The notes beneath the pieces were generated by a model. That model was not told where the DNA came from and searched no databases. It saw only the letters and a program-made list of their open reading frames with translations. A DNA stretch of 64,000 bases. Origin: a virus. Below are positions 22,312-52,308 of the stretch, piece by piece. Each line of letters starts with the position of its first letter. Position 1 is the first letter of the stretch. The stretch lies in IMG/VR virus record IMGVR_UViG_3300045988_052780; one strand, given 5' to 3'. Made by a program: the position numbers and the translations under genes.

Positions 22312-22635
22312 TTACCTTTTCCAAGATATAAACAAGTAACTACCTACCAATCCGGGATAACCTTCCTTATTAATTACTTTTACGAAGAATTGCTTCTCCT
22401 CGTAATATTTAAGAATGTCATCAATAGATTTTAGTTCGTCATCGTTTAAATCCATTACTAGACTAAAGTAATTATTCTCACTTTTAGCCTTAATAAAGCT
22501 GTCAGTAGTACTAATGAACCTCTTAAGTATAATTTCTTGAGTTACTACTTCATTGTACGTTGCAACCGAATATGCTTCCTCCGCATTCATTGAACTTCCT
22601 TCTAACAGTTTGCTGAAATCAAATAACTTTCTCAT
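22312..22635 (-). CDS. hypothetical protein
   Basis: 107-aa ORF. Confidence 0.4.
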   Translation of the reverse strand: MRKLFDFSKLLEGSSMNAEEAYSVATYNEVVTQEIILKRFISTTDSFIKAKSENNYFSLVMDLNDDELKSIDDILKYYEEKQFFVKVINKEGYPGLVGSYLFISWKR

Positions 22636-22663
22636 AATCTAATTAATTTAAGCCTCCTTTTAG

Positions 22664-22737
22664 TGACTTGAGTGGGACTCTAACCCACAACCTGCTCCTT
22701 AGGACGGAGATGCTCTATACTATTGAGCTATCAAGCC
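22664..22737 (-). tRNA. tRNA-Arg(CCT)
   Basis: Manual cloverleaf: acceptor GGCTTGA/TCAAGTC, D-arm GCTC..GAGC, anticodon loop GTCCTAA, T-stem GTGGG/CCCAC. Confidence 0.65.
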
Positions 22738-22744
22738 TTGACGG

Positions 22745-23212
22745 TTACATACTAATAGATCCGGTATGTTTACCTCTTACTTTAACAGAGTTAGCAGTAA
22801 TATCTCCCTCTACATCACCACCTACTTCGATGCTGTTAGCTTCTATACTACCTCCTACATTACCTTTAACTTTGACACTATTACCATGTACAGTAAGAGC
22901 GTTTCCATCAATGTCACATGTATTACAGTTAAGCTCCTTTACATTACCAGTAAAACTGATATGTACACTATCATTATTGACTTCAGATATTAATTTACCA
23001 TTCACATAAATTCTATTCTTTATTTGTGACAGGGTAATATCATCTTCATCAATATCAAACGATTCATTGTCAATAAACAGTTTATTCATGATTCTTCTTA
23101 TCCAGTTCATAGTACTTAATAAGTTTATCAAATGCTTTAACTCTAGCATTATGTCCTTCCTCACTATCAGGGGTCCACCAATAAGCTTTACCATACCTGT
23201 CTTTAGGAGCAT
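22745..23212 (-). CDS. beta-helix repeat protein (bactofilin-like or hexapeptide-like repeats)
   Basis: The C-terminal half carries repeated G(N/D)V.G.I/V units (GNVKELNCNTCDIDGNALTVHGNSVKVKGNVGGSIEANSIEVGGDVEGDITANSVKVRG). Confidence 0.35.
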   Translation of the reverse strand: MLLKTGMVKLIGGPLIVRKDIMLELKHLINLLSTMNWIRRIMNKLFIDNESFDIDEDDITLSQIKNRIYVNGKLISEVNNDSVHISFTGNVKELNCNTCDIDGNALTVHGNSVKVKGNVGGSIEANSIEVGGDVEGDITANSVKVRGKHTGSISM

Positions 23213-23390
23213 CTAGAAACTTCCTGTTAAATTCTGGAATCATGGTAATTATATCACGTTGGCTATAAATAGTGATTCCACGTTCGGTTCCTGCCATAGC
23301 GTGTTCTATACAGAAACACATTCCCCAGTATTCAGGGTGGGTTACAAATAATTCTTTAGCTTTTTTAAGAACACTTACAACATCTGTCAT
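23082..23390 (-). CDS. hypothetical protein
   Basis: 102-aa ORF. Confidence 0.35.
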   Translation of the reverse strand: MTDVVSVLKKAKELFVTHPEYWGMCFCIEHAMAGTERGITIYSQRDIITMIPEFNRKFLDAPKDRYGKAYWWTPDSEEGHNARVKAFDKLIKYYELDKKNHE

Positions 23391-23564
23391 TTCACTTTAG
23401 ATTTAGTTAGTTGGCCAATCATTTGATTTCTAAAGCCCTCAACTTGATGGGGACATATATTAGTAATCCATTCTTTAAAATATCTATGATATTTAGTGTG
23501 ATTACTTTTATAGAACTCTCTTTCCAACCAGTTATACAATTCTCTTTCCATATTTATTAAATTA

Positions 23565-23637
23565 GTAGTCTTATTCAGAATCGAACTGAAACCTCCATAT
23601 CCGTAGTATGGTATTCTATCCGTTAAACTATAAGACT
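23565..23637 (-). tRNA. tRNA-Arg(ACG)
   Basis: Acceptor AGTCTTA/TAAGACT, anticodon stem CCATA/TATGG with loop CTACGGA, T-loop TTCGATT. The D-arm is irregular. Confidence 0.6.
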
Positions 23638-24133
23638 AAAGAATAGAGGGTGTGCTGTTACGCCAAATGCTCTGACTGAGTTTCACTCTTATCTCGTTTA
23701 CCTTCCTCCGTCTATATAGGCAGTTTCAACATGAGTATTCTAAACGACATTATTACATTCTTGATTCGAGGCTATCAGTAAGGATGCTGCCTAATTATAC
23801 TTCAATAGAAACCTACTCGCAACTCTTTAAATGATGGCCGCTTTTAAGCCTACATCCCCTCTATTATAATTATTCTATACCATAGTACATTAAGTACAAT
23901 ACTTGCTGCCTTAAACCGTATCTACGTGTAACAACATTGGCATTAAACCTTCCAGTTATGGCTACATTAATGCTTCTCTTCAATTTGTCGGCAGTAAATG
24001 ATTTACCAGTAGTACCAATTAATCCATTAGGTTCATCAGCGCAAATAAAATCTACAGCTTCAAATAACTGTTCTTTGGTCTCTGCACTATTTACCTTTTG
24101 CCACTTCTCTAATTCTCTCTCAGAATTCATAAC

Positions 24134-24508
24134 TTAAGACAATGCTTCAAGCTCTTTAGCCAATTCTTCATAAGATTTACTCTCAAGCTCTGCATCCTGT
24201 TTCTTAGCCATGAGATCAAGAATCTTTTGACGCTTAGCTTTCTTCTCAGCAGCTACAATGCGTTCTTCCTGTTCCTGTAACTTAACGTCAATAATGTGTT
24301 TTACAATATTGAATTTCAGTTCAAGTTCAGTGGCGTCTTTAGTACGAGTCTTAATGAAACTTTCGGTTTGTGATTCCTTTAGCCTCTTATTAAGATTAAT
24401 AGCAATAGGATCAAGTTGTTCCAGAGATAAATCCCACAAATCTTCAACAGATAATACTCCACGATTAGTGGAATAACGTAATTTTACCCTTGATGCTTTC
24501 TCAAACAT
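24134..24508 (-). CDS. hypothetical coiled-coil protein
   Basis: 124 aa, heptad-rich. Confidence 0.4.
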   Translation of the reverse strand: MFEKASRVKLRYSTNRGVLSVEDLWDLSLEQLDPIAINLNKRLKESQTESFIKTRTKDATELELKFNIVKHIIDVKLQEQEERIVAAEKKAKRQKILDLMAKKQDAELESKSYEELAKELEALS

Positions 24509-24519
24509 AACATTTTCAT

Positions 24520-26532
24520 TTAAAAGTTAACTTTAATGGTTCTTGTAAAGCTGCCAGTAACTTTACAGATAACACTATTGCGGATGGTAGATGAGAATCC
24601 TAAACCACTCAACTGATTATCAGAATAAGGAGCCTTCATCTTATTAGCTAACATCTCAAATGTCTTACGATCCTGAGATAGTTCACTCCTAAGATATTCG
24701 TTAAAGAATCCTCTTACTGGAGATGGATTCTTGCACCCATCTAAGATAAAGAAATAGTGTTTATTGCCTACTTCTGCACCGTTCCAATAATTTGGAGACA
24801 GAGTGAGTAACGATACCTTATGGAATTTGTTAGTAGACAAGTGCCACGTCTCTTTATCACTTGAATTACTCGGAAGGACATCATGTATGACAATTCCCTT
24901 GGCCTTAGAATACTCAAATCTGGCTACTGTCACTTTATCACGACCTCGAAGATCTGTTGTGTAGGTATACTCACGTACTTCTCCGTTACATTCAATTTCA
25001 ACAGTAAATCCAACATCGTGATAATCTCTTTTGCAGAAATTGTGTACATATACGGTATACATACCTTCCATACGTGGTTCATCCTCCCAGATAACGTTCT
25101 CTACTGGTTTACGAGAATGTATACCACCAGCATTCATGTCAACATCTAGCACCCCACCAGAAGCTCCAGTTCTATGTGAATAATAGATTTCATTATCACG
25201 TGGTTGTATGATATGGATGTCTAAATCATCACCATTATACCATGCAAGAGAACACCTTAGATATCCATTCACCTTACCTCCAGCAGCCTGCACCTTATCC
25301 TTAATAGAAGAATCTGCAAGGTCTCCATTGTATGTCCAAGCGAAATTGTTTGGCCATTTAAATAGATTCTTTGCATCTTTATTAGATGGAGCTGTTAGAG
25401 TCATAAGGTTGTTTATATGTCTACTTTCTAATAGAACTTCTATACTGGTAGCATTGGGAACAACATCCTTAATAAAGTCCTCAATTGATATTTCAGCAAC
25501 AGTACCTAATTTCTTAGGATTAACTGGAATATCTTCCGCTAAATCTTGGAATACACTATTCCCAAGCATTGACTTCTTAGCATTTCTATCAGCAAAGATT
25601 ACATCATTAACTGTAATGTCAGTAATTTCTGCATGTCGCCTTGGAAGTGCATCCATTAGCCCTAGTTCAATAACCCTAGCTTCAGCAGCTTGAATCATCT
25701 TCTTAGTAGCTATTGTCTTAGGTCTTTGATAATTAGCAGGAGCTACTATTCTCTCGTAAGCTCTTACACTTTCATCAAGTTCACGTCCATTGGAGATGTC
25801 TACAAGCAAAGTGCCTATAGCAGTATTCCTAATACGTCCTACATATCCAACTTTAGCAGATTCAACCCAGCAGAAATTATCACGTTCCTCGCGGGGTACT
25901 ACTTCATATTTCTTCTTAAGTGCAACAAATGCCTCTAGATCGGATTTGTACTGGTCTCCACGATACAAAGAACCTTGTGAAATCAAATCCAGAACAATGT
26001 CAAAAGCATCCATGGATAACTCATCCAAAGCCCGCTTCAATACTGTTTTATTGGTACGAAGTGCTCCTCTTACTGCTTCTTCAGAATCAGATACTGCACA
26101 AAGTAAATGATTAGGAAGCTTGTAAAATAAATGATTCCATGTATGTACGTGTCTCGTAGGAGTTTCTATCCACACATTGTTCTTATCTGTACCCAGTTTA
26201 ACCACCTTACTAACAAATACGTCACATACTGGTTTAGATTTAACAAGTTGGGCTAAGTTTCTGGCTACTGTAGCATAAGGTTCATCTAACACTAAGGAAT
26301 CCCAAATACTTACTAACTTGTTATTAACTATTGCAACTACATTGCCATAAGGTTTGATAAATTGACGACAGCAATTACATGTATGTGATTGTCTCTCGTC
26401 TTCTGGATAAGAATCTATGTAACAATCCCACAGCTCATCCTTATTAACATTAGTTAAATACAATCTATCAGCATTATTAGCTAAGGCATCAAATTGCTTA
26501 TAAACTGCTCGTTTAAAATCAATAAATTCCAC
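24520..26532 (-). CDS. large hypothetical protein (670 aa)
   Basis: Long uninterrupted ORF with no motif I can assign. Confidence 0.5.
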   Translation of the reverse strand: MEFIDFKRAVYKQFDALANNADRLYLTNVNKDELWDCYIDSYPEDERQSHTCNCCRQFIKPYGNVVAIVNNKLVSIWDSLVLDEPYATVARNLAQLVKSKPVCDVFVSKVVKLGTDKNNVWIETPTRHVHTWNHLFYKLPNHLLCAVSDSEEAVRGALRTNKTVLKRALDELSMDAFDIVLDLISQGSLYRGDQYKSDLEAFVALKKKYEVVPREERDNFCWVESAKVGYVGRIRNTAIGTLLVDISNGRELDESVRAYERIVAPANYQRPKTIATKKMIQAAEARVIELGLMDALPRRHAEITDITVNDVIFADRNAKKSMLGNSVFQDLAEDIPVNPKKLGTVAEISIEDFIKDVVPNATSIEVLLESRHINNLMTLTAPSNKDAKNLFKWPNNFAWTYNGDLADSSIKDKVQAAGGKVNGYLRCSLAWYNGDDLDIHIIQPRDNEIYYSHRTGASGGVLDVDMNAGGIHSRKPVENVIWEDEPRMEGMYTVYVHNFCKRDYHDVGFTVEIECNGEVREYTYTTDLRGRDKVTVARFEYSKAKGIVIHDVLPSNSSDKETWHLSTNKFHKVSLLTLSPNYWNGAEVGNKHYFFILDGCKNPSPVRGFFNEYLRSELSQDRKTFEMLANKMKAPYSDNQLSGLGFSSTIRNSVICKVTGSFTRTIKVNF

Positions 26533-26544
26533 GATAATTAAATT

Positions 26545-27366: not shown

Positions 27367-27456
27367 AATCTTTATGCTTTCTTTTTAATAGAACCTGGTC
27401 TTGTAGTAGCCCTTTTGAATGTATCAGACTGCTTATCCCACCATGCTTGACGGTCT

Positions 27457-27918
27457 CTAAGACGTTGTTGTTTCTTCTTGTATTTCATACATATTTAAGT
27501 TTAATTCATTGCTAGCATTATAAGCAAGCTTATCAGCTTTCTCATTATACTCAGAACCATTATGTCCTTTGACCCATCTCACGTCTATAAGCTTATGACG
27601 TTCAATAGCCCTATCAAGTCTAGCCCATAAGTCAGTATTAGCTTTCCTTTTCCAGTTCTTAGTAAGAGTACCTACTATATACATGGAATCAGTAACTATA
27701 ATGACTTCTGAGCTAGTTTTAATGGATTCTAATGCGACTATAACTGCCATTAGTTCCATTCTTTGATTAGTACTATTTACATACATTTTACTGTAGGAGA
27801 ATACTTCCTTTCCATCTTCCACGATAACGAATCCTATTCCACCTTGATTTCTAGCAGGAGAGTATGCTCCATCAGTAAATATTGTATACTTATGCATCAG
27901 CTGTAGGATCTTCAACAA
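27457..27918 (-). CDS. rnhA: ribonuclease HI
   Basis: Canonical RNase H motifs are present: TDGA, GGIGFVI, NQRMELMAVIVALE, TDSMYIV, KGHNG...NEKADKLA. Confidence 0.85.
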   Translation of the reverse strand: MLKILQLMHKYTIFTDGAYSPARNQGGIGFVIVEDGKEVFSYSKMYVNSTNQRMELMAVIVALESIKTSSEVIIVTDSMYIVGTLTKNWKRKANTDLWARLDRAIERHKLIDVRWVKGHNGSEYNEKADKLAYNASNELNLNMYEIQEETTTS

Positions 27919-28621: not shown

Positions 28622-28692
28622 TCGCCATCAGAGGATTCGAACCCCTGCCACTACGCGTACTGTGGACCCGATCAAAACGATTGTTAATGGCG
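28622..28692 (-). ncRNA. tRNA-like element (perfect acceptor stem and T-arm, non-cloverleaf body); possible pseudo-tRNA or Y-RNA-like tRNA mimic
   Basis: Minus strand reads CGCCATT...AGGGG-TTCGAAT-CCTCT-GATGGCG-A. The 7-bp acceptor and canonical T-arm fold, but the 39 nt between them do not form D and anticodon arms; they contain an ACGCGT palindrome. Confidence 0.4.
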
Positions 28693-30806: not shown

Positions 30807-30831
30807 AATCTTTAAGTATTAATTAGTAATG

Positions 30832-31573
30832 TGGCGAGAAGGTGACTCGAACACCCAACCTTGCGATTATTTCTTTGGACGTGTGCTCTTAGCATTTAAT
30901 CGTCCGTAATTCTCAGTTAAGCTGTGACAATTTGGACACAGTAACTGTAGATTGTCTTCTGAGTTGTTGGTAGCATCACCATCTATGTGGTGAACATGAA
31001 GTGGAGGTTCTCCTGTAATCGGGTGAATCTTATCCCACCCACAAACTTGGCACTTACGTTCATGCTTATCCATGAGATAGTCCCTAATGTGTTTAGAAAT
31101 GGAACGAGTTCCACACATGCCAGTTTCTTCACCTTCCTTCCATCTTCTAATGTACTCTTTATGTTTGTACTCGGCTTGACATACGTTGTTACAGTACTTA
31201 GTAGTACTGTTATGATTGCTTAATTCTTTACCGCAATTTAAACAGACTCTAGTTACTAACTTCTTGCCCTTGTTAAAGGTTTCGTTAGCATTTATACTTC
31301 TTCGTTTAACTATGCTGATGTTAAGTCTCTTAGCAACCCTTCGTATGTTTGAGCCTGTACAGCCGTACATTCTACCAATCTCCTCATAAGACACTTTGTC
31401 TGTTAATATTAACCTTTCTAAGTTCTCTTTCTCTAAATTCCAGTCCATTTGTATAACTCTTAATTGAATTACAAATGTAATGATTTTAGATAAAGAAACC
31501 TAGGAATTCGATTCTTATTAAGAATTATTAACAGTATGAGTCGCACGCTCTAACCAGTTGAGCTATCTCGCCA
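30832..31573 (-). tRNA. tRNA-Met(CAT) split in the anticodon loop by a 667-nt intervening sequence carrying an HNH endonuclease gene (exon 1 31536..31573, exon 2 30832..30868)
   Basis: 5' half GGCGAGA TA GCTC AACTGGTTA GAGC G TGCGA CTCAT... and 3' half ...AA TCGCA AGGTT GGGTG TTCGAGT CACCT TCTCGCC A. Acceptor (7/7), anticodon stem (5/5) and T-stem pair perfectly once the halves are joined. Confidence 0.6.
30867..31448 (-). CDS. HNH homing endonuclease with N-terminal sigma-70 region-4-like HTH, inside the tRNA-Met intervening sequence
   Basis: HNH motifs CQVCGW...HVHHIDGD...NLQLLCPNCH. Paralog of 44439..45047. Its stop codon TAA abuts the exon-2 anticodon stem. Confidence 0.8.
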   Translation of the reverse strand: MDWNLEKENLERLILTDKVSYEEIGRMYGCTGSNIRRVAKRLNISIVKRRSINANETFNKGKKLVTRVCLNCGKELSNHNSTTKYCNNVCQAEYKHKEYIRRWKEGEETGMCGTRSISKHIRDYLMDKHERKCQVCGWDKIHPITGEPPLHVHHIDGDATNNSEDNLQLLCPNCHSLTENYGRLNAKSTRPKK

Positions 31574-34937: not shown

Positions 34938-35227
34938 TACTTGTTAGGTTTATTAATCTTATTTACTTCCTTAATAATTGCCTCGCAATTCTCTCTGGTT
35001 GTAGTTAAACAACCTAATTGAATAATTGAACCATCTTGAGTGATGGTAAGATTCTTATCATCAATTGTGGTTCTACATTCACTTCCCCTAATAATACTTT
35101 TAATCAATGGGTAGGGTAATGCAGTATTCTTACAGAATATTACATTCTTGCCTTCCACATAAATGACATCGTAGCCGTCAATGCTACCTACTACCTTCCT
35201 CATAAAAGATTCTTATCATCAATTGTG

Positions 35228-35301
35228 TGGGCCCAGCCAGACTTGAACTGACAACCTCAACATTACGAGTGTTTTGCTCTAACCAATTGAGCTATGAGCC
35301 C
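35228..35301 (-). tRNA. tRNA-Thr(CGT)
   Basis: GGGCTCA TA GCTC AATTGGTTA GAGC, anticodon loop CTCGTAA (one A:G mismatch at 27:43), T-loop TTCAAGT. Confidence 0.7.
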
Positions 35302-35469: not shown

Positions 35470-36516
35470 CTATGACTCCCTTACATACTCTTCATAAATA
35501 TACAGTTCAAAGTTAGGTCTTATAAACATATCTTTGTCTGTAGCTTCGTCCCAATGAGTAACTATAACCTTCTTGCGAACGTTATGGCTAAACATAGAAT
35601 CAATATTGAGACTATGCCTAAACAAAACTGGATCAAACTCTATAGCCCGGAAAGATTTCTGAAAGTCGTTAAATTGGTTGTTGGGGTCTACAACAGGTCT
35701 AACTGGCTTATCAGAAGGAAACGGACCGTTACCATGACGCGTTATGTATGGTCTAGTAACGTAATTAACCGTAACGGTGTCATTACATCCAATTTGTTTT
35801 AGTATTCGATGAGCATTCTGTGATGTTGTATTAGATGGAGTGCAATGGGGCATTATTCCGAATCTTTGGTCTAATAATATACCTTGAGAACCTTCAAAGA
35901 TAAGATTGTCGTAATCTTCCCATATAGCTTCTAAGGTACTTACTTGGACAGTGTTGAAATATGCATTCACAGTTCTGCACCAATTATCCAAGTCAATTGA
36001 TGGATATACACTATTCATGTGATAATAGTTGTCTGCTATTGCATTAACTTTCTCCCTAAGAATATGTATATTCAAGCAATCTATAACCATAAGATTATAC
36101 CCCGACTTCACTCGGTCTAAACACGTTTTAAAACCAGTCCCTACAGTACCATGACGTAGATTTACTACGTCACTTACTTGGGAATAGACGTCGAATGGTA
36201 CTATGACTTGACATAATGGATTATAAATAATTTTAGGAGTAATACCTAATTTCTTTAAATCCATTGCTTCAAGTGTAGAGGTTACTGGGTCTACAGTACA
36301 GTATTCAGACCAATATGTAGGCACTCCTAGCAAGGTTCCACTTCCAAAGTTACTAAATGTGTGCATAAGGTCTCCGTATTTAACAGTATGGCCAACTTGA
36401 TGTCCACCACTAAACCTTATTACAAGTGAGTTCTCTGGATTCTTAGCACATATATTATGTACCGTCTGTCCCTTACCTTCATCGCCCATAAATGAGCCTA
36501 ACACTATACTAATCAT
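35470..36516 (-). CDS. purA: adenylosuccinate synthetase (PurA)-like, shortened. The ORF-track start at 36624 is probably too far upstream; the likely start is the internal Met before GSFMGDEGKG.
   Basis: GDEGKGQ P-loop and RFSGGHQVGHTV motif match PurA (GDEGKGK / GGHNAGHTV). Confidence 0.7.
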   Translation of the reverse strand: MISIVLGSFMGDEGKGQTVHNICAKNPENSLVIRFSGGHQVGHTVKYGDLMHTFSNFGSGTLLGVPTYWSEYCTVDPVTSTLEAMDLKKLGITPKIIYNPLCQVIVPFDVYSQVSDVVNLRHGTVGTGFKTCLDRVKSGYNLMVIDCLNIHILREKVNAIADNYYHMNSVYPSIDLDNWCRTVNAYFNTVQVSTLEAIWEDYDNLIFEGSQGILLDQRFGIMPHCTPSNTTSQNAHRILKQIGCNDTVTVNYVTRPYITRHGNGPFPSDKPVRPVVDPNNQFNDFQKSFRAIEFDPVLFRHSLNIDSMFSHNVRKKVIVTHWDEATDKDMFIRPNFELYIYEEYVRES

Positions 36517-36520
36517 GATT

Positions 36521-37441
36521 TTAATAGAAATTTTGTTTGTCTTCGGTAGTTGTACTACTAGAAGCATCACTAGGAGTTTCTGCATACACAGGCTCCTCGT
36601 AATTGTCTTTAATTGCTTTAGCAATTACTTTATCCACTTCATCAGATTTGCACATTAGTACATTCTGTCCAAGTAGATTCTTCCAAGATTCAGCCACCCT
36701 TGTGCCATAACTGGCATTAGTAATGTGAATGTGGAATACATGGTACTGCTCTTGTGCTTTCAGAATTGCTTCATTAGCACTAATAGAACCAGCACCTTTT
36801 TGATACCCTAGAATTTCAGTCAAACTGTTACCTGGGATTCCTTGTAGATTAGGTTCATCACCAATAGTAAACAAGAATCCTTTAGTGTGTCTTTTGAACC
36901 AAGAATCGGTTTCAGTGTGATATCCTGCAACTATGTGAGCTAATAAATAGCTCTCACCTGCATTACCACCACCTCCACCTTCTATTACTAAGGACTCTAA
37001 TGAATTTAGAATCTTCTCAGTATCAGATTCAAACTGTCCAACCTGAATAGGATATCTATCGAATTCGTGGTCTCCAACTGCCATAAACAACAATTGAGGA
37101 TCACGTACTCCCATTTGCATGACAGAATCCATAATCTTAGGTAAATGGTTCTTAATCATTTCATAAGGAGTATTCATCATTGAACCAGTAACATCTAGTG
37201 CAATGATTATCGGAGTAGAGTATGGATGTTCTTGAGAGTCACGACACTCACGAACTCCAACATTGACCATTTCAGCTTTAACTTGAGTATTAAAGCTACG
37301 TGCATTTACATTAAATGACGCTGCTGTATTACTAGCATTTACTGAAATGTTCTTAAAGAGCTGGTCACGCGATGCTTTAGCATATCCTCTATCATCGGAT
37401 AAAGTTCTATAAGCAATACTACTGTAAACACCACTTCCCAT
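36521..37441 (-). CDS. von Willebrand factor A (vWA) domain protein
   Basis: MIDAS motif IIIALDVTGSM (DxSxS) at the start of an alpha/beta domain. Confidence 0.65.
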   Translation of the reverse strand: MGSGVYSSIAYRTLSDDRGYAKASRDQLFKNISVNASNTAASFNVNARSFNTQVKAEMVNVGVRECRDSQEHPYSTPIIIALDVTGSMMNTPYEMIKNHLPKIMDSVMQMGVRDPQLLFMAVGDHEFDRYPIQVGQFESDTEKILNSLESLVIEGGGGGNAGESYLLAHIVAGYHTETDSWFKRHTKGFLFTIGDEPNLQGIPGNSLTEILGYQKGAGSISANEAILKAQEQYHVFHIHITNASYGTRVAESWKNLLGQNVLMCKSDEVDKVIAKAIKDNYEEPVYAETPSDASSSTTTEDKQNFY

Positions 37442-43211: not shown

Positions 43212-43219
43212 ATATATAG

Positions 43220-44354: not shown

Positions 44355-44379
44355 ACATTTTTAATTATTAGTTAATAAG

Positions 44380-45197
44380 TACCCCGACTGCGATTCGAAC
44401 GCAGATATGTGGCTTAGTATAAGAACTAGGAGTCGAACCTAATTCTTATTGTTATTAATTTCATTTTTATGGTAACGGTAATAGGAACGTTCTCCACACT
44501 TGTTCTTAGACTTATAAGTATCAAGCTGTGAATCACAGTTAGGACATATGCATCGTAAATTATCTCTACGATTGTTAGATGCATGTCCGTCTATATGGTC
44601 AATGATAAAGACCAGCTCTTTACCATTCCAGATAGGCTTCATACCACATATAGCACATACTCCACCTTGCTCTTTTAGAATATCTTTCTTGAAGGCCTTA
44701 GGAGAGTAGTTAGCTCTCATTATACTTTCATCACCGTCCAAAAGCTTCTTGTAAGCAAGCATATGAGCATGTTCAAATTGACATTTAGGACCACAGTACT
44801 TGCCATAACTTCCGTTATAACTAATAAGTTCTGCACCACAGTTTAAACAGTATTTGTACTTCCTATTGAATGTTTCTTTAGGATTAATTTTACGTTTAAT
44901 TGGTAACTCTATGCCAAGTCTACGCGCTACATTCTTAATATTAGCACCTGAACAACCATATCTTCTTCCTATTTCCTCATAACTGAGCTTATCTATCAAA
45001 ATTAAATGCTCAAGTTGAGCTTTCTCGTTAATCCATTTACTTGTCATATTCGTCTAAATTAGAAATTCGTACCTCAAAGATACGAATCTTTTACGAATTA
45101 AACAAGTAAATGGATGTTTTGTTGAAATTAATAACAGTGAGTTACGGACTCACCAGCCGTATGAAGGCCACTGTTCTATCCCTTGAACTATCGAGGC
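44380..45197 (-). tRNA. tRNA split in the anticodon loop by a ~746-nt intervening sequence carrying an HNH endonuclease gene. The anticodon is TCT (Arg) or TCA (UGA-reading) depending on the exact junction (exon 1 45162..45197, exon 2 44380..44415).
   Basis: 5' half GCCTCGA TA GTTC AAGGGATA GAAC A GTGGC CTTCA... and 3' half ...AA GCCAC ATAT CTGCG TTCGAAT CGCAG TCGGGGT A. The anticodon stem GTGGC/GCCAC is perfect and the acceptor pairs 7/7 with two G:U. Confidence 0.55.
44439..45047 (-). CDS. HNH homing endonuclease with N-terminal HTH, paralog of 30867..31448, inside a tRNA intervening sequence
   Basis: CAICGM...IDHIDGH...NLRCICPNCD HNH motifs. The N-terminal 60 aa are about 60% identical to the other HNH. 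Confidence 0.8.
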   Translation of the reverse strand: MTSKWINEKAQLEHLILIDKLSYEEIGRRYGCSGANIKNVARRLGIELPIKRKINPKETFNRKYKYCLNCGAELISYNGSYGKYCGPKCQFEHAHMLAYKKLLDGDESIMRANYSPKAFKKDILKEQGGVCAICGMKPIWNGKELVFIIDHIDGHASNNRRDNLRCICPNCDSQLDTYKSKNKCGERSYYRYHKNEINNNKN

Positions 45198-46892: not shown

Positions 46893-46901
46893 ATTTAAAT
46901 A

Positions 46902-47099
46902 CTAAACACCATCTAGCATTATTAAGAAACCTATAATGGCTATCATAGAACCAATTATGATTGGAACTCCTATAATATCTCCTAAGTTTACTAGTATTGG
47001 CAACAATAGAATCATGCATCCAATTAGAAACATGATAAGTCCTTTAATAAATCTGTGTGTCATAAAATCTATATATTTCCTACTGACAGGCGGCAGCAT
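46902..47099 (-). CDS. small membrane protein
   Basis: 65 aa, very hydrophobic. Confidence 0.35.
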   Translation of the reverse strand: MLPPVSRKYIDFMTHRFIKGLIMFLIGCMILLLPILVNLGDIIGVPIIIGSMIAIIGFLIMLDGV

Positions 47100-47357
47100 G
47101 ATTATCCATGCGGAATTATCATGCCCGTGGGAGTCATTACATAAGTCTTAGAGACTTGAATGAAATACCACTTAACTGCTTTCTTAATTAACTTAAATAG
47201 TTTCATAATAACTCAGTTTTAGTCAGTAAATTAATAATCTAAAGAAACCACTCTATCTTCACAGACCGAGTGGTCGAATACAATTATTTGTACTTCAAGT
47301 TGCTTAATTAAAACATTTCCAGTGACTCCAGAGGGACTTGAACCCTCGACCCACGGA

Positions 47358-47795
47358 TTAACAGAATATTTTAGATATTCTATCTTCAGAGATAACATAA
47401 TCTTTGGTGAAATTTATTCCTTTAACTTGTCCATTCTTGGATGTTTCAGTCCTAAGAGTAATTGTACGTCTATCAACCAACTCAGACATAGGGAATAAAT
47501 AAATTGTATCTAAATCACAACATATAACTACATCCACTTCATCAATGGTGTATTTATGAGTTTCTTTGTTACTCCAGTTATTTGTCACTAAACTAAAACA
47601 AAGAGAGTTATTCTCTGTCTTAGTATCAGTGGTTTTAACTTGACACTTAAAGAATTTGTTGTTGTGGAAGACAACGAAATCAAAAGGGAGATTGTCAGAC
47701 ATAGGTAATAATACATCAATACCATACTTAGCTAACTCTCCGATTGCTACACGCTCTCCCATTTCACCTAATTGTTTGTTATTTCTAACTTCCAT
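47358..47795 (-). CDS. YraN/I-Ssp6803I-like PD-(D/E)XK homing endonuclease
   Basis: GE.GERVAIGELAKYGIDVLLP...DFVVFHNNKFFKCQVKTT matches the UPF0102/I-Ssp6803I core. The start ATG is 1 nt after tRNA-Lys, and the last codons TGT TAA lie inside the CTGTTAA anticodon loop of the split tRNA. Confidence 0.6.
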   Translation of the reverse strand: MEVRNNKQLGEMGERVAIGELAKYGIDVLLPMSDNLPFDFVVFHNNKFFKCQVKTTDTKTENNSLCFSLVTNNWSNKETHKYTIDEVDVVICCDLDTIYLFPMSELVDRRTITLRTETSKNGQVKGINFTKDYVISEDRISKIFC

Positions 47796-47796
47796 G

Positions 47797-47868
47797 TCAC
47801 TCCGCAGGGACTTGAACCCTGTTCTATAGATTAAAAGTCTATAGCATATCCATACATGCTCCGGAGTG
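47797..47868 (-). tRNA. tRNA-Lys(TTT)
   Basis: Fully canonical: CACTCCG GA GCAT GTATGGAT ATGC T ATAGA CTTTTAA TCTAT AGAA CAGGG TTCAAGT CCCTG CGGAGTG A. Confidence 0.85.
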
Positions 47869-48007
47869 AGACATCCGTTAATCCGTTGCTCTAAGCCAGC
47901 TGAGCTATGGAGTCATCCTACAGAAGACAGAATTAAATCACACGAATAAATTGGCGGTTGCCAAGTCATGAAGTGCTGACGTCTTCTTATATTTCACTAA
48001 ATCGAAG

Positions 48008-48081
48008 AGTGGGCGCTCGGATTCGAACCGAGGAATACAGATTTTGCAGACCTGCCTATTAAGCCACTCTAGCACGCCCAC
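48008..48081 (-). tRNA. tRNA-Cys(GCA)
   Basis: Perfect acceptor GTGGGCG/CGCCCAC, anticodon stem CAGGT/ATCTG with loop CTGCAAA, T-arm CTCGG TTCGAAT CCGAG, discriminator U as in bacterial tRNA-Cys. Confidence 0.75.
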
Positions 48082-48179
48082 ATGTCAATGGACTAATGTG
48101 AGGCGAAAGTGAAACGGTTTAATCATTAAGGTTTTAATGATTGGATCTAGTGAAACTAAACAAACATACAAATAAATCG

Positions 48180-49040
48180 TCTGGGTAGTGTGGCTCGAAC
48201 ACACGACATCTAGGTCTAGGAACTAATGCTTTAGAGATTTATCCAATCATTAGAGTTAATAGATTTAATATCTGACGTTTTGGTTGGAAGGTTGTAGCTC
48301 TTACACCACTTTCTAACAGCGTTATCTGAGACTCCAAAGTCCTTTCCAATTTGAGTAAATGGTTTAAATCTAATTAATTCTTTTAGTTGCTCTCTTGTAG
48401 GTCTCTCGACCTTCTGTGCATTCTTAGTAGCACACTCTACACATATACCATTAGCCTTAGAGACTTTGTTAGTGTTACACTGAGAACAGATATAAACTTT
48501 AGGTAAAGGCTCAGATTCCTCTGAACTCCTAACAAAAGAATTAGATACTTTATGTCCTAGCATGTTCTCTAACAGGTAATCCTCTGCTTTGTTATAAGCA
48601 CCACTGTTGTTAGCAGGTGGTTTGAGTCTTAATGTCTTGTCAGTTGAACACTCACTTACTGGAACAAGGTAAACCTTGTTATCGTAACAGGTTGCAAAGT
48701 AATCTATCTGCTCATCATCGTATCTCCTACGAATTGTCTCTTTGGTGTTGGTAGTCTGTGTGACTGTACTAAAATGAAATGCATCTAAATCTCGTACACC
48801 ATTCCTAATAGGATTACTAGACGACTTGCACTGAACTTTAAGGAGTTCATCGCCAGTATCTACTATCATGTCATATCTGGCACAATCACCATAAGGAATT
48901 GAGCAATCAAATCCCATTGACATGAATCCCATAAGGCAGGTTAGTTCTGTAATGTTACCTTTAGATTTTGTATAATCCATATGTTATACTCTAAAGTTTA
49001 GTTCCCAAACCTAGCATTCTACCTACTGAATTATACCCAG
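48180..49040 (-). tRNA. tRNA-Pro(TGG) split at the 3' side of the anticodon loop by a ~790-nt intervening sequence carrying a YraN-like endonuclease gene (exon 1 ~49003..49040, exon 2 48180..48216)
   Basis: 5' half CTGGGTA TA ATTC AGTAGGTA GAAT G CTAGG TTTGGGA and 3' half (GA) CCTAG ATGTC GTGTG TTCGAGC CACAC TACCCAG A. All stems are perfect. The intervening sequence ends with CCTAGA, duplicating the start of exon 2. Confidence 0.6.
48231..48980 (-). CDS. YraN/I-Ssp6803I-like PD-(D/E)XK homing endonuclease with C-terminal zinc-ribbon and HTH DNA-binding extension
   Basis: The N-terminus ITELTCLMGFMSMGFDCSIP...DMIVDTGDELLKVQCKSS is paralogous to 47358..47795. C-terminal CSQCN...CVEC and a DFGVSDNAVRKW HTH. 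Confidence 0.6.
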   Translation of the reverse strand: MDYTKSKGNITELTCLMGFMSMGFDCSIPYGDCARYDMIVDTGDELLKVQCKSSSNPIRNGVRDLDAFHFSTVTQTTNTKETIRRRYDDEQIDYFATCYDNKVYLVPVSECSTDKTLRLKPPANNSGAYNKAEDYLLENMLGHKVSNSFVRSSEESEPLPKVYICSQCNTNKVSKANGICVECATKNAQKVERPTREQLKELIRFKPFTQIGKDFGVSDNAVRKWCKSYNLPTKTSDIKSINSNDWINL

Positions 49041-49110
49041 AGTGCGGAAGTCTAAATATGCTTGACATGGGTTATGCTGTAAGACTTCCTATCAATTCGA
49101 AATCAAGACG

Positions 49111-49184
49111 TGGGCAAGATAGGACTTGAACCTATGACCCCTACCTTATCAGAGTAGTGCTCTAACCAACTGAGCTACTTGCCC
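49111..49184 (-). tRNA. tRNA-Ile(GAT)
   Basis: GGGCAAG TA GCTC AGTTGGTTA GAGC A CTACT CTGATAA GGTAG, T-arm ATAGG TTCAAGT CCTAT. Confidence 0.85.
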
Positions 49185-49272
49185 ATCCACAGAAGACGCT
49201 ACCAATACTAATCATGTAAGAGGCGTGTGCTGTACGTCTTCTTAAATAAAATAATCATTTATGGATTATATG

Positions 49273-49289
49273 GTTGCGGAGATGGGAGT
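49273..49289. repeat. 17-bp direct repeat ttgcggagatgggagtt. It duplicates the 3' end of tRNA-Met (50000..50016) and flanks the GIY-YIG gene on its far side.
   Basis: 16/17 identity with 50000..50016. It is followed by the hairpin GATGGGA(N14)TCCCATC. Confidence 0.7.
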
Positions 49290-49936
49290 TATTGTGCATA
49301 TTCCCATCTATATCCGTATGCTGTCTTAGTCTTGTGCTTAGCTGCATTAGAGATATGGCTTCTAACACCTCCGTTATATGTCTTAGCATAACCGTTATCA
49401 ACACACCAATGTGCTGCATCAGCTACGCTATCAAACACTTGCACAAGCATATCTTCGTTGTACTGTTCTATCTTTACTGGAGGTTTACAGGAGCCACAAC
49501 GTGACTTGCTATTATTGTGAGACCTCTTAATGTCCTTCACTACTTTAGACACTGTGTCTGGATGACATCCTACTATTTTAGCAGTATCTTTCATCGAATG
49601 TCCAGCAGCGTAAAGCTCACGAATTTCATCATAGTTCCAAATAATAGAACCATCTCCACCGGTAGTGGCATTATAACCATTACCATAGGTTTTAAATTCA
49701 TTTATCCAGTAAGTTTCTCTTCCGCTAGATTCCTTTGACGAGCACTCTTCTAGCATTTCTATGCTAAATGAATCAATTCCATATTTATTCATGGCTCTAT
49801 ACAAAGGTCTATCTTTGCATCTCTCCTTCTTATAATCTCTACAGTGTTCTTTCCATCTCTTACTAACGGACGAAGTAGTTTTACCTATATACTTCTTTCC
49901 ATTTACATGGTTAGTTATGCAGTAAATATAAGACAT
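49289..49936 (-). CDS. GIY-YIG homing endonuclease (I-TevI/Seg-like) with C-terminal DNA-binding region
   Basis: N-terminal YIYCITNHVNGKKYIGKT...RWKEH is the GIY-YIG signature. The C-terminal half has NUMOD/HTH-like segments. Confidence 0.8.
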   Translation of the reverse strand: MSYIYCITNHVNGKKYIGKTTSSVSKRWKEHCRDYKKERCKDRPLYRAMNKYGIDSFSIEMLEECSSKESSGRETYWINEFKTYGNGYNATTGGDGSIIWNYDEIRELYAAGHSMKDTAKIVGCHPDTVSKVVKDIKRSHNNSKSRCGSCKPPVKIEQYNEDMLVQVFDSVADAAHWCVDNGYAKTYNGGVRSHISNAAKHKTKTAYGYRWEYAQ

Positions 49937-49999
49937 TAAGCTTTAGTCGAATTAGCGTTACCCGAATCTCACCACGTGGAGGTTTCGACTATGAGATTC

Positions 50000-50078
50000 T
50001 TGCGGAGATGGGAGTCGAACCCAATATAACTAGCTTATGAGACTAGTATGATTTATATATCCGTTTCATTCCTCCGCA
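50000..50078 (-). tRNA. tRNA-Met/Ile2(CAT) with enlarged D-loop
   Basis: Acceptor TGCGGAG/CTCCGCA, anticodon stem CTAGT/GCTAG with loop CTCATAA, T-arm TTGGG TTCGACT CCCAT. The D region is 6 nt longer than standard. Confidence 0.5.
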
Positions 50079-50081
50079 AAG

Positions 50082-50153
50082 TGCTCCATACAGGATTCAA
50101 ACCTGTGACACGTAGGTTTAGGGTCTACTGTTCTATCGCTGAACTAATGGAGC
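50082..50153 (-). tRNA. tRNA with CUA anticodon (candidate amber-suppressor / TAG-decoding tRNA); loop is atypical (C33)
   Basis: Perfect acceptor GCTCCAT/ATGGAGC, D-arm GTTC AGCGATA GAAC, anticodon stem GTAG(A)/(C)CTAC with loop CCCTAAA, T-arm ACAGG TTTGAAT CCTGT. Confidence 0.5.
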
Positions 50154-50274
50154 GTGTGGCAATGCTTTTAAGGTGCACCGCCAATTCATCCTACTACTTA
50201 CTTCTCCACCCCGTAAGATTAACTATTCGGTGGTAAGACCAGTCACAACATGCTAACTGCTGTGGAGCCTTGTT

Positions 50275-50580
50275 TCAGTAATTTCCTACTAACTTAAGTT
50301 TCTTGAACATACGACCGTCATCTTGTAATGCGATTGCTGTTAATTGGTTATTAAGGTCTGGTTCACGGAACATAGAGTAATCCTTATTAGTAAGGTCTAA
50401 TCTAACTCTCCATTTATCCAAGTCAGCATATAAGTAGATTAAGTAGTTATTGTTCCAATTCTGATTAGGATGTTCCAATAACCACTGTGCTACTGCATGA
50501 CCACCTTGTACACAACCATAAACTACATCAAGCTTCTGGTCTATCAGCACATACAGTCTCTTCATCAGAATATGCATCAA
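50275..50580 (-). CDS. peptidyl-tRNA hydrolase, PTH2 family-like
   Basis: YVLIDQKLDVVYGCVQGGHAVAQW aligns by eye to the PTH2 block VVRTDLKMGKGKIAAQCSHAA. Size (101 aa) and the C-terminal KLKLVG fit the family. Confidence 0.45.
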   Translation of the reverse strand: MMHILMKRLYVLIDQKLDVVYGCVQGGHAVAQWLLEHPNQNWNNNYLIYLYADLDKWRVRLDLTNKDYSMFREPDLNNQLTAIALQDDGRMFKKLKLVGNY

Positions 50581-50875
50581 TTAGTGAATCAACTCTACTC
50601 ACAAAGTATTTCCATGTTTCCTTTGAGTAATCTCCACCGGAGCAACCGTACCAGCCGTTGAATTTTAATTTCTTCCAAGAATCTAATACTTGCTTGTAGT
50701 AAGCTTCTTGTGCATCCCCAACCAGTTTATGTTTTAGAATGTAATAAGCTACATACATTGCATGTAATAAACCTCTGTTACGATATACTTCTGATTGATG
50801 ATTAATTCTTTTAGCGACCTTCTGTGCTTTTACTAATTCGCTAATTTCTCTTTTAAAATCGTTAATTGTTGCCAT
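50528..50875 (-). CDS. hypothetical protein
   Basis: 115-aa ORF. Confidence 0.4.
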   Translation of the reverse strand: MATINDFKREISELVKAQKVAKRINHQSEVYRNRGLLHAMYVAYYILKHKLVGDAQEAYYKQVLDSWKKLKFNGWYGCSGGDYSKETWKYFVSRVDSLIDAYSDEETVCADRPEA

Positions 50876-50964
50876 AATAATTAGTTGTTAATAAGTTAAT
50901 AAAATTGTAATTTCTAAATAACAGACTAACTGTTATGGTGGTTTGTAAGAAATCTACCGCATAA

Positions 50965-51249
50965 TCATTTCCTTTTAAATTGTTTGCACATGTTAATAAA
51001 CTCATCTTCCGATTCGCATATAATCGGATTTATTTCCTTAATAAAATCCTCCTGATAAGCTTCTTTGGACAAATCATTTATATCATCAGGATAAACACCA
51101 TGCACATCATAAGCCATATTGGATTCCCAACAACAGAGCCAATCAGCTTCTTTAAACGATGAACATATACATACACTTATTCCAGCTTGCTCTAACCTTT
51201 GTCTAAGCTCTGGAGTATTATTCTTAATAATACAGCATTTACTCATCAC
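50965..51249 (-). CDS. hypothetical protein
   Basis: 94-aa ORF. Confidence 0.35.
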   Translation of the reverse strand: MMSKCCIIKNNTPELRQRLEQAGISVCICSSFKEADWLCCWESNMAYDVHGVYPDDINDLSKEAYQEDFIKEINPIICESEDEFINMCKQFKRK

Positions 51250-51617
51250 TCACTTTCACTGACGAATGGAGTCCAACTAAGACTAAGTGACTCTACTGTG
51301 TTATCGTCACTAACGGCATTGGCAGTAAAACCTCCATGACTGACATTATATTCAAGTACATTAGAAGTGTCATCTACATGTTTGTAAAATTCCGGATTAA
51401 GTAATGTGTCAATGACACTCTCTGCTGTTTCTCTCAATAATTTAGCAGTCAAGAATTTACCATTCCATGATACCGAGGCTGCTATAGGCGAGGAGGCCAA
51501 CTTATGGAAATCACAAGGCTGATTGACATCTATGTATAGATTATATATTTCCAATATCCTCTCGAAATCCATACCGTCTAAACATTCATTTTTAATCTTT
51601 TCACTTACACTGTTCAT
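51246..51617 (-). CDS. hypothetical protein
   Basis: 123-aa ORF. Confidence 0.4.
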   Translation of the reverse strand: MNSVSEKIKNECLDGMDFERILEIYNLYIDVNQPCDFHKLASSPIAASVSWNGKFLTAKLLRETAESVIDTLLNPEFYKHVDDTSNVLEYNVSHGGFTANAVSDDNTVESLSLSWTPFVSESE

Positions 51618-51639
51618 AATACTTCAAATTTAAAACGAG

Positions 51640-51711
51640 AGCGGGATAACAGAATCGAACTGTCATCTTCAGCTTGGAAGGCTGTTATAATAACCATTAT
51701 ACGAATCCCGC
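51640..51711 (-). tRNA. tRNA-Gly(TCC)
   Basis: GCGGGAT/ATCCCGC acceptor, anticodon stem (A)CAGC/GCTG(A) with loop CTTCCAA, T-arm GACAG TTCGATT CTGTT, discriminator U. Confidence 0.75.
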
Positions 51712-51799
51712 AGTTTACTTCTACTATTCTCACGAACCATAGAAGGGTTTGCTGAGCGAATGCTCAACAGATGTTGTATTTAATTATCGCAGTGTGGGG

Positions 51800-51883
51800 T
51801 GGGCCCGGGAGGACTCGAACCTCCAGTCCAATTAAGGAGTAGATTTACAGTCTACGCGGCTACCAATTACCGGTTACGTGCCC
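51800..51883 (-). tRNA. tRNA-Tyr(GTA), type II
   Basis: Anticodon arm GTAGA CTGTAAA TCTAC, long variable arm, T-arm GGAGG TTCGAGT CCTCC. The acceptor has one A:G mismatch. Confidence 0.65.
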
Positions 51884-52130
51884 AAATCACACAATCCATA
51901 TTAACTGATGAATTGTGAGTGCAAAGATAAGTAATCCTTCTCACATATAAAAGTTAATATGTATTAAATACAACATGGGGAAATTTAATTGGATATAGAC
52001 TTACTATCTTCACAGACTGTAAGCCTTTATGACCATTTCCAATAGTTGCTGTTTTAAGTAGTAATGGCAATGACACAGATGCAACTATCGGAAATTCTTT
52101 ATGAGTAATTTAAAACTACAGTAATAATAG

Positions 52131-52200
52131 TCAGCTAGGTGGGATTCGAACCCACACCACTTACATAATTTGTAAGTCTTCTAACTTAAATTACTAGCCT
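52131..52200 (-). ncRNA. tRNA-like element (canonical T-arm GTGGG TTCGAAT CCCAC plus 6-bp acceptor) with a non-cloverleaf body; candidate Y-RNA-like tRNA mimic or degenerate tRNA
   Basis: Minus strand is AGGCTAG TAATTTAAGTTAGAAGACTTACAAATTATGTAAGTGGTGT GGG-TTCGAAT-CCCAC CTAGCTG A. The body forms a 7-bp hairpin ACTTACA/TGTAAGT with a 5-nt loop instead of D and anticodon arms. It lies about 105 nt downstream of the vWA/Ro-like gene on the same strand. Confidence 0.4.
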
Positions 52201-52308
52201 TACCGCTCACAGGCATCATTCAAATAAATCCCATCTAATAGATTAGATATGTAATTAGACTGTCTTTGATTTGTAATGCACTTCTAATTACATAAGGAAT
52301 TTAATCTT

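Follow-up and report, generated by a model that had tools for sequence, protein, structure and literature searches.

The tRNA array and its endonuclease genes

The stretch of viral DNA analysed here, 64,000 nucleotides (nt) of the IMG/VR virus record IMGVR_UViG_3300045988_052780 and hereafter called the window, contains an array of about 29 transfer RNA (tRNA) genes, and its subject is a set of homing endonuclease genes lodged in them. According to Pfam, the array holds five such genes: two of the HNH type, two of the PD-(D/E)XK type (PF11645) and one of the GIY-YIG type. Only the GIY-YIG gene is free-standing and lies between genes; the other four, described in a first-pass annotation as interleaved with the tRNAs, sit inside the tRNA genes for Met, Arg(TCT), Lys and Pro, in the anticodon loop and in the orientation of the tRNA. 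The region is probably the tRNA island of a phage found in gut/faecal metagenomes that has been invaded repeatedly by selfish homing-endonuclease cassettes. The closest contig measures 182.5 kb, and megablast of 20 kb against the INPHARED phages returned two short, uninformative matches only. The principal features are given below with their basis in brackets; handles such as L024 denote loci of relatives, and aa and bp stand for amino acids and base pairs.

22663-52200, minus strand: tRNA array, about 29 genes (ARAGORN, Rfam, orphan T-arm search)
30831-31572, minus strand: tRNA-Met(CAT), interrupted in the anticodon loop (nt 36/37 or 37/38) by a 667-nt insert; exon 1 31572-31536, exon 2 30868-30831 (ARAGORN, L024 comparison)
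30867-31448, minus strand: HNH endonuclease gene, 193 aa, inside tRNA-Met (Pfam)
44379-45197, minus strand: tRNA-Arg(TCT), interrupted at nt 34/35 (or 35/36) by a 746-nt insert (ARAGORN, L024 comparison)
44418-44449, minus strand: 12-bp tRNA-like minihelix plus one base, ending exactly at exon 2 (CTAA...) of tRNA-Arg(TCT) (fold, L037 comparison)
44439-45047, minus strand: HNH endonuclease gene, 202 aa, inside tRNA-Arg(TCT) (Pfam)
45137-45162, minus strand: candidate H-type pseudoknot at the 5′ end of the Arg insert (ACGG..GTGAGT..CCGT.ACTCAC; weak, three variants only)
47323-47914, minus strand: resident tRNA-Lys ('X'), disrupted; 5′ half 47914-47882, 3′ half 47357-47323 (T-arm search, intact allele at L024:5684)
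47358-47795, minus strand: PD-(D/E)XK (PF11645) endonuclease gene, 145 aa, directly after the inner tRNA-Lys (Pfam, PDB match)
47796-47868, minus strand: complete replacement tRNA-Lys(TTT) inside the Lys insert (ARAGORN, Rfam)
48180-49040, minus strand: tRNA-Pro(TGG), interrupted between nt 37 and 38 by a 788-nt insert; exon 1 49040-49004, exon 2 48215-48180 (T-arm search, L024 comparison)
48216-49009, minus strand: junction structure of the Pro insert (folds, alignment of nine lineages)
48231-48980, minus strand: PD-(D/E)XK (PF11645, I-Ssp6803I-like) endonuclease gene, 249 aa, in tRNA-Pro (Pfam, PDB match)
49289-49936, minus strand: free-standing GIY-YIG endonuclease gene, 215 aa (Pfam)
49936-49999, minus strand: candidate ribozyme resembling that of hepatitis delta virus (HDV-like, theta-type) (Rfam RF02682)
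50000-50074, minus strand: weak tRNA-CAT with an odd D-arm (ARAGORN relaxed mode, relatives)
52131-52200, minus strand: tRNA-like gene with the loop AAATTAT, lacking U33 (Rfam, sequence reading)

The figure of about 29 is made up of 23 genes called by ARAGORN at default settings, one more from Rfam, the weak tRNA-CAT, three precisely interrupted genes (Met, Arg(TCT) and Pro) and one disrupted gene (Lys). The 23, all on the minus strand from 22663 to 51884, are Arg CCT, Arg ACG, Leu TAA, Leu TAG, Thr CGT, Gln, Thr TGT, Asp, Glu TTC, Glu CTC, Ser GCT, Phe, His, Ala, Ser TGA, Trp, Asn, Lys, Cys, Ile GAT, a suppressor CTA, Gly and Tyr. Rfam at its gathering score also gives 23 tRNA matches, missing Tyr (41.9 bits in an E-value search) and adding the gene at 52131-52200 with 40.6 bits. 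When introns are allowed, ARAGORN adds the interrupted Met and Arg(TCT) genes, while the interrupted Pro and disrupted Lys genes emerge from an orphan T-arm search, in which a 3′ acceptor strand was taken and a complementary 5′ strand sought upstream. The weak tRNA-CAT (50001-50074) scores 92.5 in the relaxed mode of ARAGORN and 20.8 bits with Rfam, and relatives hold a canonical Met(CAT) at its position. Four of the array's tRNA genes are overlooked by ARAGORN at default settings; standard finders miss interrupted genes, so that phage tRNA repertoires are under-counted.

These results agree with the first-pass annotation on the array and its strand, its count of about 27 tRNAs being slightly low. 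The ARAGORN run that it suggested yields 23 genes by default and more with introns, not far fewer than its manual folds, and its Arg(TCT), Pro and both CAT tRNAs prove real (ARAGORN with introns, orphan T-arm search, relaxed mode). It had announced six homing endonucleases, of which five are found by Pfam and no sixth in the region. The two HNH genes and the GIY-YIG gene were typed correctly, and its 'YraN-like' pair belongs instead to the I-Ssp6803I family of PD-(D/E)XK enzymes: both proteins match PF11645 (86 and 72 bits against a cut-off of 26.1), and the best match of both is PDB 2OST (E 8e-7 and 3e-4), which is I-Ssp6803I. The peptidyl-tRNA hydrolase of PTH2 type that it had also named finds no PTH2 match in any small open reading frame (ORF) tested.

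Insert designs and their relatives

Three of the four inserts are precise. Excision of the Pro insert restores the tRNA-Pro of L024 except for one T-loop base; the acceptor stem is CTGGGTA/TACCCAG, exon 1 ends TTTGGG, exon 2 starts A-CCTAG, and the predicted spliced joint runs from ...CTAGGTTTGGG to ACCTAGATGTC. Only 23 nt on the 5′ side and 15 nt on the 3′ side of the 249-codon ORF are non-coding. Excision of the Met insert likewise restores the L024 tRNA except for one D-loop base, with a predicted joint from ...CGACTCATA to ATCGCAAGG. Here the loop of exon 1 is CTCAT(A) and the insert consists of an 87-nt leader followed by the HNH ORF, whose TAA stop codon is completed by exon-2 bases, so that 3′ non-coding intron RNA is absent. 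The Arg insert, also precise, opens with a leader of 115 nt, followed by the HNH ORF and a 3′ tail of 22 nt; CTT(C) closes exon 1, (C)TAA opens exon 2, and the predicted joint is ...GTGGCCTT(C) to (C)TAAGCCAC. In its anticodon stem and variable loop, the window has A-GTGGC...GCCAC-ATAT against C-TGGGA...CCCCA-TAAT in the intronless L024, and these exon differences are read as a probable co-conversion tract, as expected from homing.

The Lys case is one of replacement, as judged from its two genes: the cassette would supply its own tRNA, the resident gene being dead. The acceptor stem GACTCCA/TGGAGTC and the anticodon stem ACGGA/TCCGT of the resident tRNA are present, and part of its loop, CCTTTAA in L024, has been lost, so that excision could not restore the tRNA. 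L023 holds the same variant as the inner tRNA-Lys, alone at this locus and without an endonuclease gene.

Syntenic relatives were collected by scanning IMG/VR with the neighbouring SPFH protein, which returned 29 loci. In L024 and L025, whose SPFH protein is 99% identical to that of the window, the Pro, Lys, Arg(TCT) and Met genes are uninterrupted and the GIY-YIG gene is absent. The Pro insert, on the other hand, recurs in L013/L029 and L014/L045, 99.2% identical along 846 nt. These loci belong to a clade with an SPFH protein of only 69% identity; the Pro exons of the window and of the L013/L029 clade differ by compensatory pairs (C1-G72 and A1-U72; T-stem GTGTG/CACAC vs GCCAG/CTGGC). The near-identical insert in a distant clade, together with empty sites in near-identical relatives, points to recent horizontal homing, and homing of the cassettes is well supported by these comparisons. 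The first-pass annotation had proposed both that tRNA-targeting endonucleases are actively mobile here and that their presence or absence be compared among relatives; the comparison bears the proposal out.

Counted over all relatives, no fewer than eight of the array's tRNA genes carry an endonuclease insert in some genome. Inserts occupy Ser(GCT) in L023, L048 and L050, with a similar insert there in L046, and Ser(TGA) in L023 and L044; co-conversion tracts flank the Arg and Ser(GCT) inserts. A diverged Arg insert (protein 81% identical) sits in a different Arg(TCT) background in L037, and L048 has kept the Arg insert with its HNH ORF deleted. Scans of IMG/VR with the Arg HNH protein and with the 145-aa PD-(D/E)XK protein singly brought up very few relatives. 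Three designs recur. In one, the endonuclease gene is accompanied by a complete spare tRNA of the same specificity and the old loop is damaged (Lys in the window, Ser(GCT) and Ser(TGA) in L023/L050, Arg(TCT) in L053). In another, the endonuclease gene is followed by the 12-bp minihelix plus one base, abutting exon 2 at C35 (CTAA) (Arg(TCT) in the window and L037, Ser(GCT) in L048). In the remaining one, there is an endonuclease gene only (Pro and Met in the window, Ser(TGA) in L021, Ile in L005).

The minihelix of the Arg insert is a 7-bp acceptor-like stem stacked on a T-arm. It covaries between the window (ATAAGAA/TTCTTAT) and L037 (GTGAAT/ATTCAT), and the Ser(GCT) insert of L048, which belongs to another endonuclease family, has the same design. 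A mere remnant of a spare tRNA was considered and rejected, since two tRNAs and two endonuclease families share exactly this 12-bp geometry, with covariation, a pattern that favours a functional minihelix. A cut by RNase P at the candidate pseudoknot of the Arg 5′ end was likewise discarded, as the topology places the expected cut within the knot and off the junction.

The Pro insert belongs to the largest family, at least 419 homologues of its endonuclease being present in public assemblies. Ten further lineages were fetched, with endonucleases 48-76% identical to that of the window, and eight of them (L057, L061, L063, L064, L065, L066, L188 and L189) lie in tRNA-Pro(TGG) at nt 37/38, their exons being highly dissimilar mutually and folding into a clean cloverleaf in each. 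In L059, the gene is preceded by a Pro-like 5′ half, but the 3′ part folds non-canonically; the tenth lineage, L187, no longer has exon 2. All nine sampled lineages that keep both junctions (the window and these eight) therefore occupy the same tRNA at the same position. A second tRNA-Pro was found neither in the 64-kb window nor in the fetched stretches around other occupied alleles. In a search with a degenerate pattern modelled on the DNA of the Pro 3′ junction (TAAAGCATTNNTTCCTRR), the known L013 locus alone was real among the matches listed, the others being chance.

These nine lineages were aligned at the junctions (alignment A1), the aligned windows being chosen by sequence anchors and not by pairing. 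The anticodon stem is followed by four weak pairs between loop bases 32-35 and the last insert bases, and then by an 8-bp junction helix in which G36, G37 and insert bases 1-6 (49005-48998) pair with 48226-48219 (insert positions n-10 to n-3). Beyond it come an invariant internal loop, AAAC/GCAUU, and a CUU/AAG helix. In the junction helix, 97% of the alignment cells are paired, and 5 of the 8 pairs change on both sides; its covariation score was reached by none of 500 shuffles, and slid controls were 33-53% paired. The anticodon TGG is invariant across the alignment, whereas at position 37 a G-C pair gives way to A-U, base and partner changing together. The sequence at either junction is RR|A.

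The free-standing GIY-YIG gene, absent from L024 and partially deleted in L026, begins where the ribozyme candidate stops (49936). The candidate is a full-length match to RF02682 with 38 bits, below the gathering score of 44 (E 8e-6 within 271 nt). Theta (minimal HDV-like) ribozymes adjoin phage tRNAs including suppressors, with tRNA-Met among the commonest partners, and are recognised by cleavage within about 5 nt of the tRNA 3′ end (PMC10879173). The candidate of the window resembles them in that its G1 at 49999 directly adjoins the tRNA-CAT discriminator, A50000, and in that it lies beside the suppressor tRNA(CTA) in a gut/faecal phage; it differs from them in its score and in the endonuclease gene that landed immediately behind it. 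Directly behind the GIY-YIG stop codon, on the minus strand at 49288-49274, is a 15-nt direct repeat of the tRNA-CAT 3′ end (CTCCCATCTCCGCAA), which is probably the scar of the cassette's insertion. In L023 and L048, another HNH gene lies inside tRNA-CAT, at nt 37/38, and its stop codon is again completed by the exon.

Removal or retention of the inserts

Bacterial and phage tRNA introns are thought to be self-splicing group I introns, and protein-dependent tRNA splicing is regarded as archaeal or eukaryotic. The inserts of the window have neither group I nor bulge-helix-bulge (BHB) features. By their sequences, the Met, Arg and Pro inserts are very probably not group I introns, because no allowed junction of any of them gives both a 5′ exon ending in U and an intron ending in G, because they hold too little non-coding RNA (38 nt in Pro, about 87 nt in Met and about 137 nt in Arg), and because a motif scan for group I core motifs (GTCCAGAC, CAGACTACA, GGGAAACC) found none in the tRNA region. 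The smallest known group I intron has about 200 nt. The same scan does mark the nrdD intron of the window at 1390. At that locus (500-2518, minus strand), an HNH ORF spans 500-1246, the group I core-like motif CAGACTAAA is at 1390, and the NrdD ORF ends at 1391, covering the N-terminal part of its profile only (ATP-cone and NRDD positions 6-165 of 562). An intron with an endonuclease gene thus seems to interrupt the gene for the anaerobic ribonucleotide reductase.

A search of 20-56 kb with Rfam, at the gathering score and at E<=5, gave no group I, group II or small-ribozyme match in the inserts, a null of limited weight because Rfam also missed the introns of L003/L004 that are read as group I. 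This failure speaks for ordinary self-splicing group I introns whose cores were missed owing to their large ORFs, together with the presence of the same endonuclease families in tRNA introns read as genuine group I (L003 Thr, L044 Ser, L066 Leu, L065 Phe), in all four of which the core motifs were recognised by eye; the absent Rfam match is not decisive alone. Given the small non-coding lengths, the missing U and G ends, and a scan that marked the nrdD intron and no core here, we consider such introns very unlikely. Introns of the archaeal BHB type, cut by an EndA-like phage enzyme and sealed by RtcB, would suit the insert positions, which fall on or close to nt 37/38, where archaeal and eukaryotic tRNA introns canonically lie. 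Homing endonucleases can be encoded in archaeal introns of the BHB type, and RtcB is found in many bacteria. By hand-threading and minimum-free-energy folds, however, no register with two 3-nt bulges 4 bp apart was obtained for Pro, Met or the Ser insert of L021; the inserts are accordingly most unlikely to be BHB introns. The Pro 5′ splice site lies inside the covarying helix, and no tRNA_int_endo domain occurs in the window ORFs scanned, which leaves the BHB explanation scarcely credible.

In the explanation that we propose, the cassettes would spread when the endonuclease cuts the anticodon stem-loop of an uninterrupted tRNA gene in a co-infecting phage; the break would then be repaired from the occupied allele, copying the cassette and a few flanking exon bases. 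Each cassette would handle the resulting damage differently, at the RNA level. The Lys cassette would supply a complete spare tRNA-Lys and leave the old gene dead, and the GIY-YIG gene would be placed behind an HDV-like ribozyme cutting exactly at the tRNA-CAT 3′ end. In the Arg cassette, processing of the RNase Z type at the minihelix would free the 3′ half of the tRNA from C35. In Pro, and perhaps in Met, the fold would let the tRNA body form while the conserved helix clamps both RR|A junctions. It is close to an even question, inclining slightly to the negative, whether the Arg and Pro cassettes (perhaps also Met) are true introns, removed by a protein endonuclease and an RNA ligase and not by a ribozyme, by steps after transcription that we infer throughout. 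The reading is built on the Pro family, which is old, large and faithful to its site, on the covariation in the junction helix, the unchanging anticodon and the lack of a second Pro gene, and on the Arg minihelix, which would let RNase Z-type processing free exon 2 at C35. In a more specific form, put forward tentatively, the Pro insert and probably those of Arg and Met would be ribozyme-free introns in which an endonuclease cuts the RR|A sites and a ligase of the RtcB or Rnl type reseals the loop. The cutter could even be the PD-(D/E)XK homing endonuclease itself; tRNA-intron splicing is one of the functions listed for this superfamily (PMC3424549). RNase III was also considered as a cutter of the junction helix and rejected, since predicted staggers of 5 bp (Pro) and 1 bp (L021 Ser) misfit its 2-nt 3′ overhangs.

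Several observations weigh against such introns, and most of them would be expected if the Pro, Arg and Met inserts were never removed, the endonuclease genes being sustained by super-Mendelian homing at the cost of dispensable tRNAs that they inactivate. Helix, minihelix and exons would then serve the element, as an endonuclease messenger RNA (mRNA) in a tRNA scaffold that is cut out by RNase P and 3′ processing and resists exonucleases; the stabilisation in E. coli of RNAs inserted into the tRNA anticodon stem has reportedly been established by Ponchon and Dardel. The spare-tRNA cassettes imply that insertion normally kills the target tRNA, and show a selection for compensation that would be pointless if splicing worked. 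Interrupted genes can also decay, as seen from L001/L043, which lack Met exon 1 and the start of the HNH gene, and from L187, which lacks Pro exon 2. At the 29 syntenic loci the inserts are rare, with two in Pro, three in Arg(TCT) plus one with its ORF deleted, and none intact in Met. The cleavage geometry is inconsistent, the junction-helix stagger being 5 bp in Pro vs 1 bp in the related Ser insert of L021, which leaves no single cutting geometry. Pfam and PHROGs identified no RNA ligase, RtcB, Pnkp or EndA among the window ORFs scanned, which are not every ORF of the window, about two thirds of the genome lying outside it. The candidate pseudoknot of the Arg insert, retained in the diverged L037 copy and the ORF-deleted L048 copy, is known from three sequences only.

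Nevertheless, this loss of function without removal fits poorly with the Pro family, and we regard it as a serious but somewhat doubtful alternative. The Pro endonucleases form an old, large family whose identities go down to 47%, and in the lineages sampled they occupy the same tRNA-Pro site wherever both junctions are kept; every such lineage has exons with a clean cloverleaf and an invariant anticodon, and no second tRNA-Pro accompanies the occupied alleles in the stretches covered. The Pro-type allele P0021, moreover, is found on dozens of contigs of 50-200 kb, and a costly gene-killer should not persist so widely. Two possibilities face each other: an enzymatic route of tRNA splicing, so far unrecognised, in phages or their hosts, or selfish genes for which tRNAs are disposable mRNA scaffolds, the damage being paid for at times with a spare tRNA. 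If enzymatic splicing is the true account, it would be a new category, in which tRNA splicing in bacteria or phages depends on proteins.

Known systems and neighbouring elements

The closest parallels are group I tRNA introns with endonucleases (Synechocystis tRNA-fMet with I-Ssp6803I, PDB 2OST; Patescibacteria, PMC13011429), which share with the present inserts PF11645, the anticodon stem-loop as target, precise insertion and a presence/absence distribution. They differ in that the inserts here contain no ribozyme, the Pro insert with its 38 nt of non-coding RNA having a covarying junction helix instead of U...G ends and core motifs. Endonuclease genes in phage tRNA clusters are already known in themselves. 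HNH genes of phage T5 are free-standing in its tRNA cluster. SegB of phage T4 is a homing endonuclease acting on a tRNA locus (PMC13096335). The window likewise has GIY-YIG and HNH genes in a phage tRNA island, as in these systems, where flanking tRNA alleles are preferentially inherited, and its GIY-YIG gene (49289-49936) fits the free-standing SegB/T5 type; unlike those of T4 and T5, four of its five genes are inside tRNA genes and not between them. Among T4-like phages, nrdA of Aeh1 is split by mobE, an endonuclease gene in a functional gene without intron or intein. The likeness to the present inserts lies in this insertion into a functional gene; the difference is that protein fragments reassemble non-covalently, whereas a loop-nicked tRNA cannot decode and needs ligation or a spare copy.

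The tRNA introns reported from Lak megaphages are described as 'enigmatic', and a tRNA is encoded in one of them (Devoto et al., bioRxiv 10.1101/356790). Like the present inserts, they are non-group-I inserts in phage tRNAs, with sequences identical across cohorts, and the tRNA-encoding one recalls the Lys cassette; in contrast, the preprint links no homing endonucleases to them and reports neither mechanism nor junction structure. Literature searches turned up no description of ribozyme-free, endonuclease-only anticodon-loop inserts, of their junction helix or of spare-tRNA endonuclease cassettes. Either outcome set out above would be new biology, and would also account for the 'enigmatic' introns of the megaphages.

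A conserved stem-loop precedes several tRNA genes of the array. Sequence comparison reveals six copies between 37980 and 49243 on the minus strand, of the form UAAGAAG-NNN..(A/U)CAGCA..N′N′N′-CUUCUG-N5-6 and then the tRNA:

49243-49185, minus strand: leader copy before tRNA-Ile
49091-49041, minus strand: leader copy before tRNA-Pro
47988-47915, minus strand: leader copy before tRNA-Lys ('X')
45252-45198, minus strand: leader copy before tRNA-Arg(TCT)
40221-40172, minus strand: leader copy before tRNA-Ser(GCT)
38025-37980, minus strand: leader copy before tRNA-Thr(TGT)

The stem-loop stops 5-6 nt short of the tRNA, and the stretch between CAGCA and N′N′N′ is variable. Among 30 genomes, it is present before Ile in 25 of 27 cases, Lys in 27 of 28, Arg(TCT) in 27 of 29, Ser(GCT) in 26 of 26 and Pro in 17 of 27, and its first variable pair appears in all four Watson-Crick combinations. 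The leader has no Rfam match. The tRNAs that bear it are largely those invaded by endonuclease genes. In another large phage (L005:4820-5206), three consecutive tRNAs have 42-64-nt inserts in the anticodon loop that share a hairpin followed by UAACAGCAA. An Asn tRNA of L019 (1818-1950) has a hairpin followed by AUCAGCAAA, with the same CAGCA box as the leader.

The Thr(CGT) tRNA at 35227-35301 (minus strand) is Met(CAT) in relatives; against L023 the middle anticodon base alone differs (CAT to CGT), and against L024 one D-loop base as well. The amber-suppressor tRNA(CTA), at 50081-50153 on the minus strand, is kept in nearly all relatives. When TAG recoding was looked for, in-frame TAGs were found only at ORF ends, so that TAG is a stop codon in the window. 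In an endonuclease ORF of L044 (3571-4274), an in-frame TAG aligns with a CAA (Gln) codon of L023:5347-5955, which hints that L044 may recode TAG to Gln. Orphan hairpins resembling T-arms, with acceptor-like complementarity beside them, lie on the minus strand at 28622-28692 (CGCCATT...GATGGCG) and 55913-55936; neither is called by Rfam or by ARAGORN at default settings, and they could be tRNA-like elements or decayed tRNAs.

Protein genes on the minus strand within the array include ORFs with a bactofilin domain (22745-23212, 31 bits), an RNase H domain (27457-27918, 106 bits) and a C-terminal domain of ribosomal L7/L12 (30405-30806, 27.5 bits), and an adenylosuccinate-synthetase-like gene of 384 aa (35470-36624; PF00709, 118.8 bits). 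The PurZ enzymes of phages, which make 2-aminoadenine genomes, are of the adenylosuccinate-synthetase family. Beyond the array, just upstream of a gene for a 572-aa DUF2828/DUF7788 protein (52309-54027), a RAGATH-34 RNA (54284-54381, minus strand, 86.9 bits) precedes a hairpin (54234-54250, minus strand) that resembles a T-arm and has an acceptor-like stem; at the equivalent spot of L024, ARAGORN calls a 'tRNA-Pro(AGG)'. Finally, a RAGATH-1 hammerhead ribozyme is matched at 62445-62518 on the minus strand, with 82.6 bits against a gathering score of 56.3.

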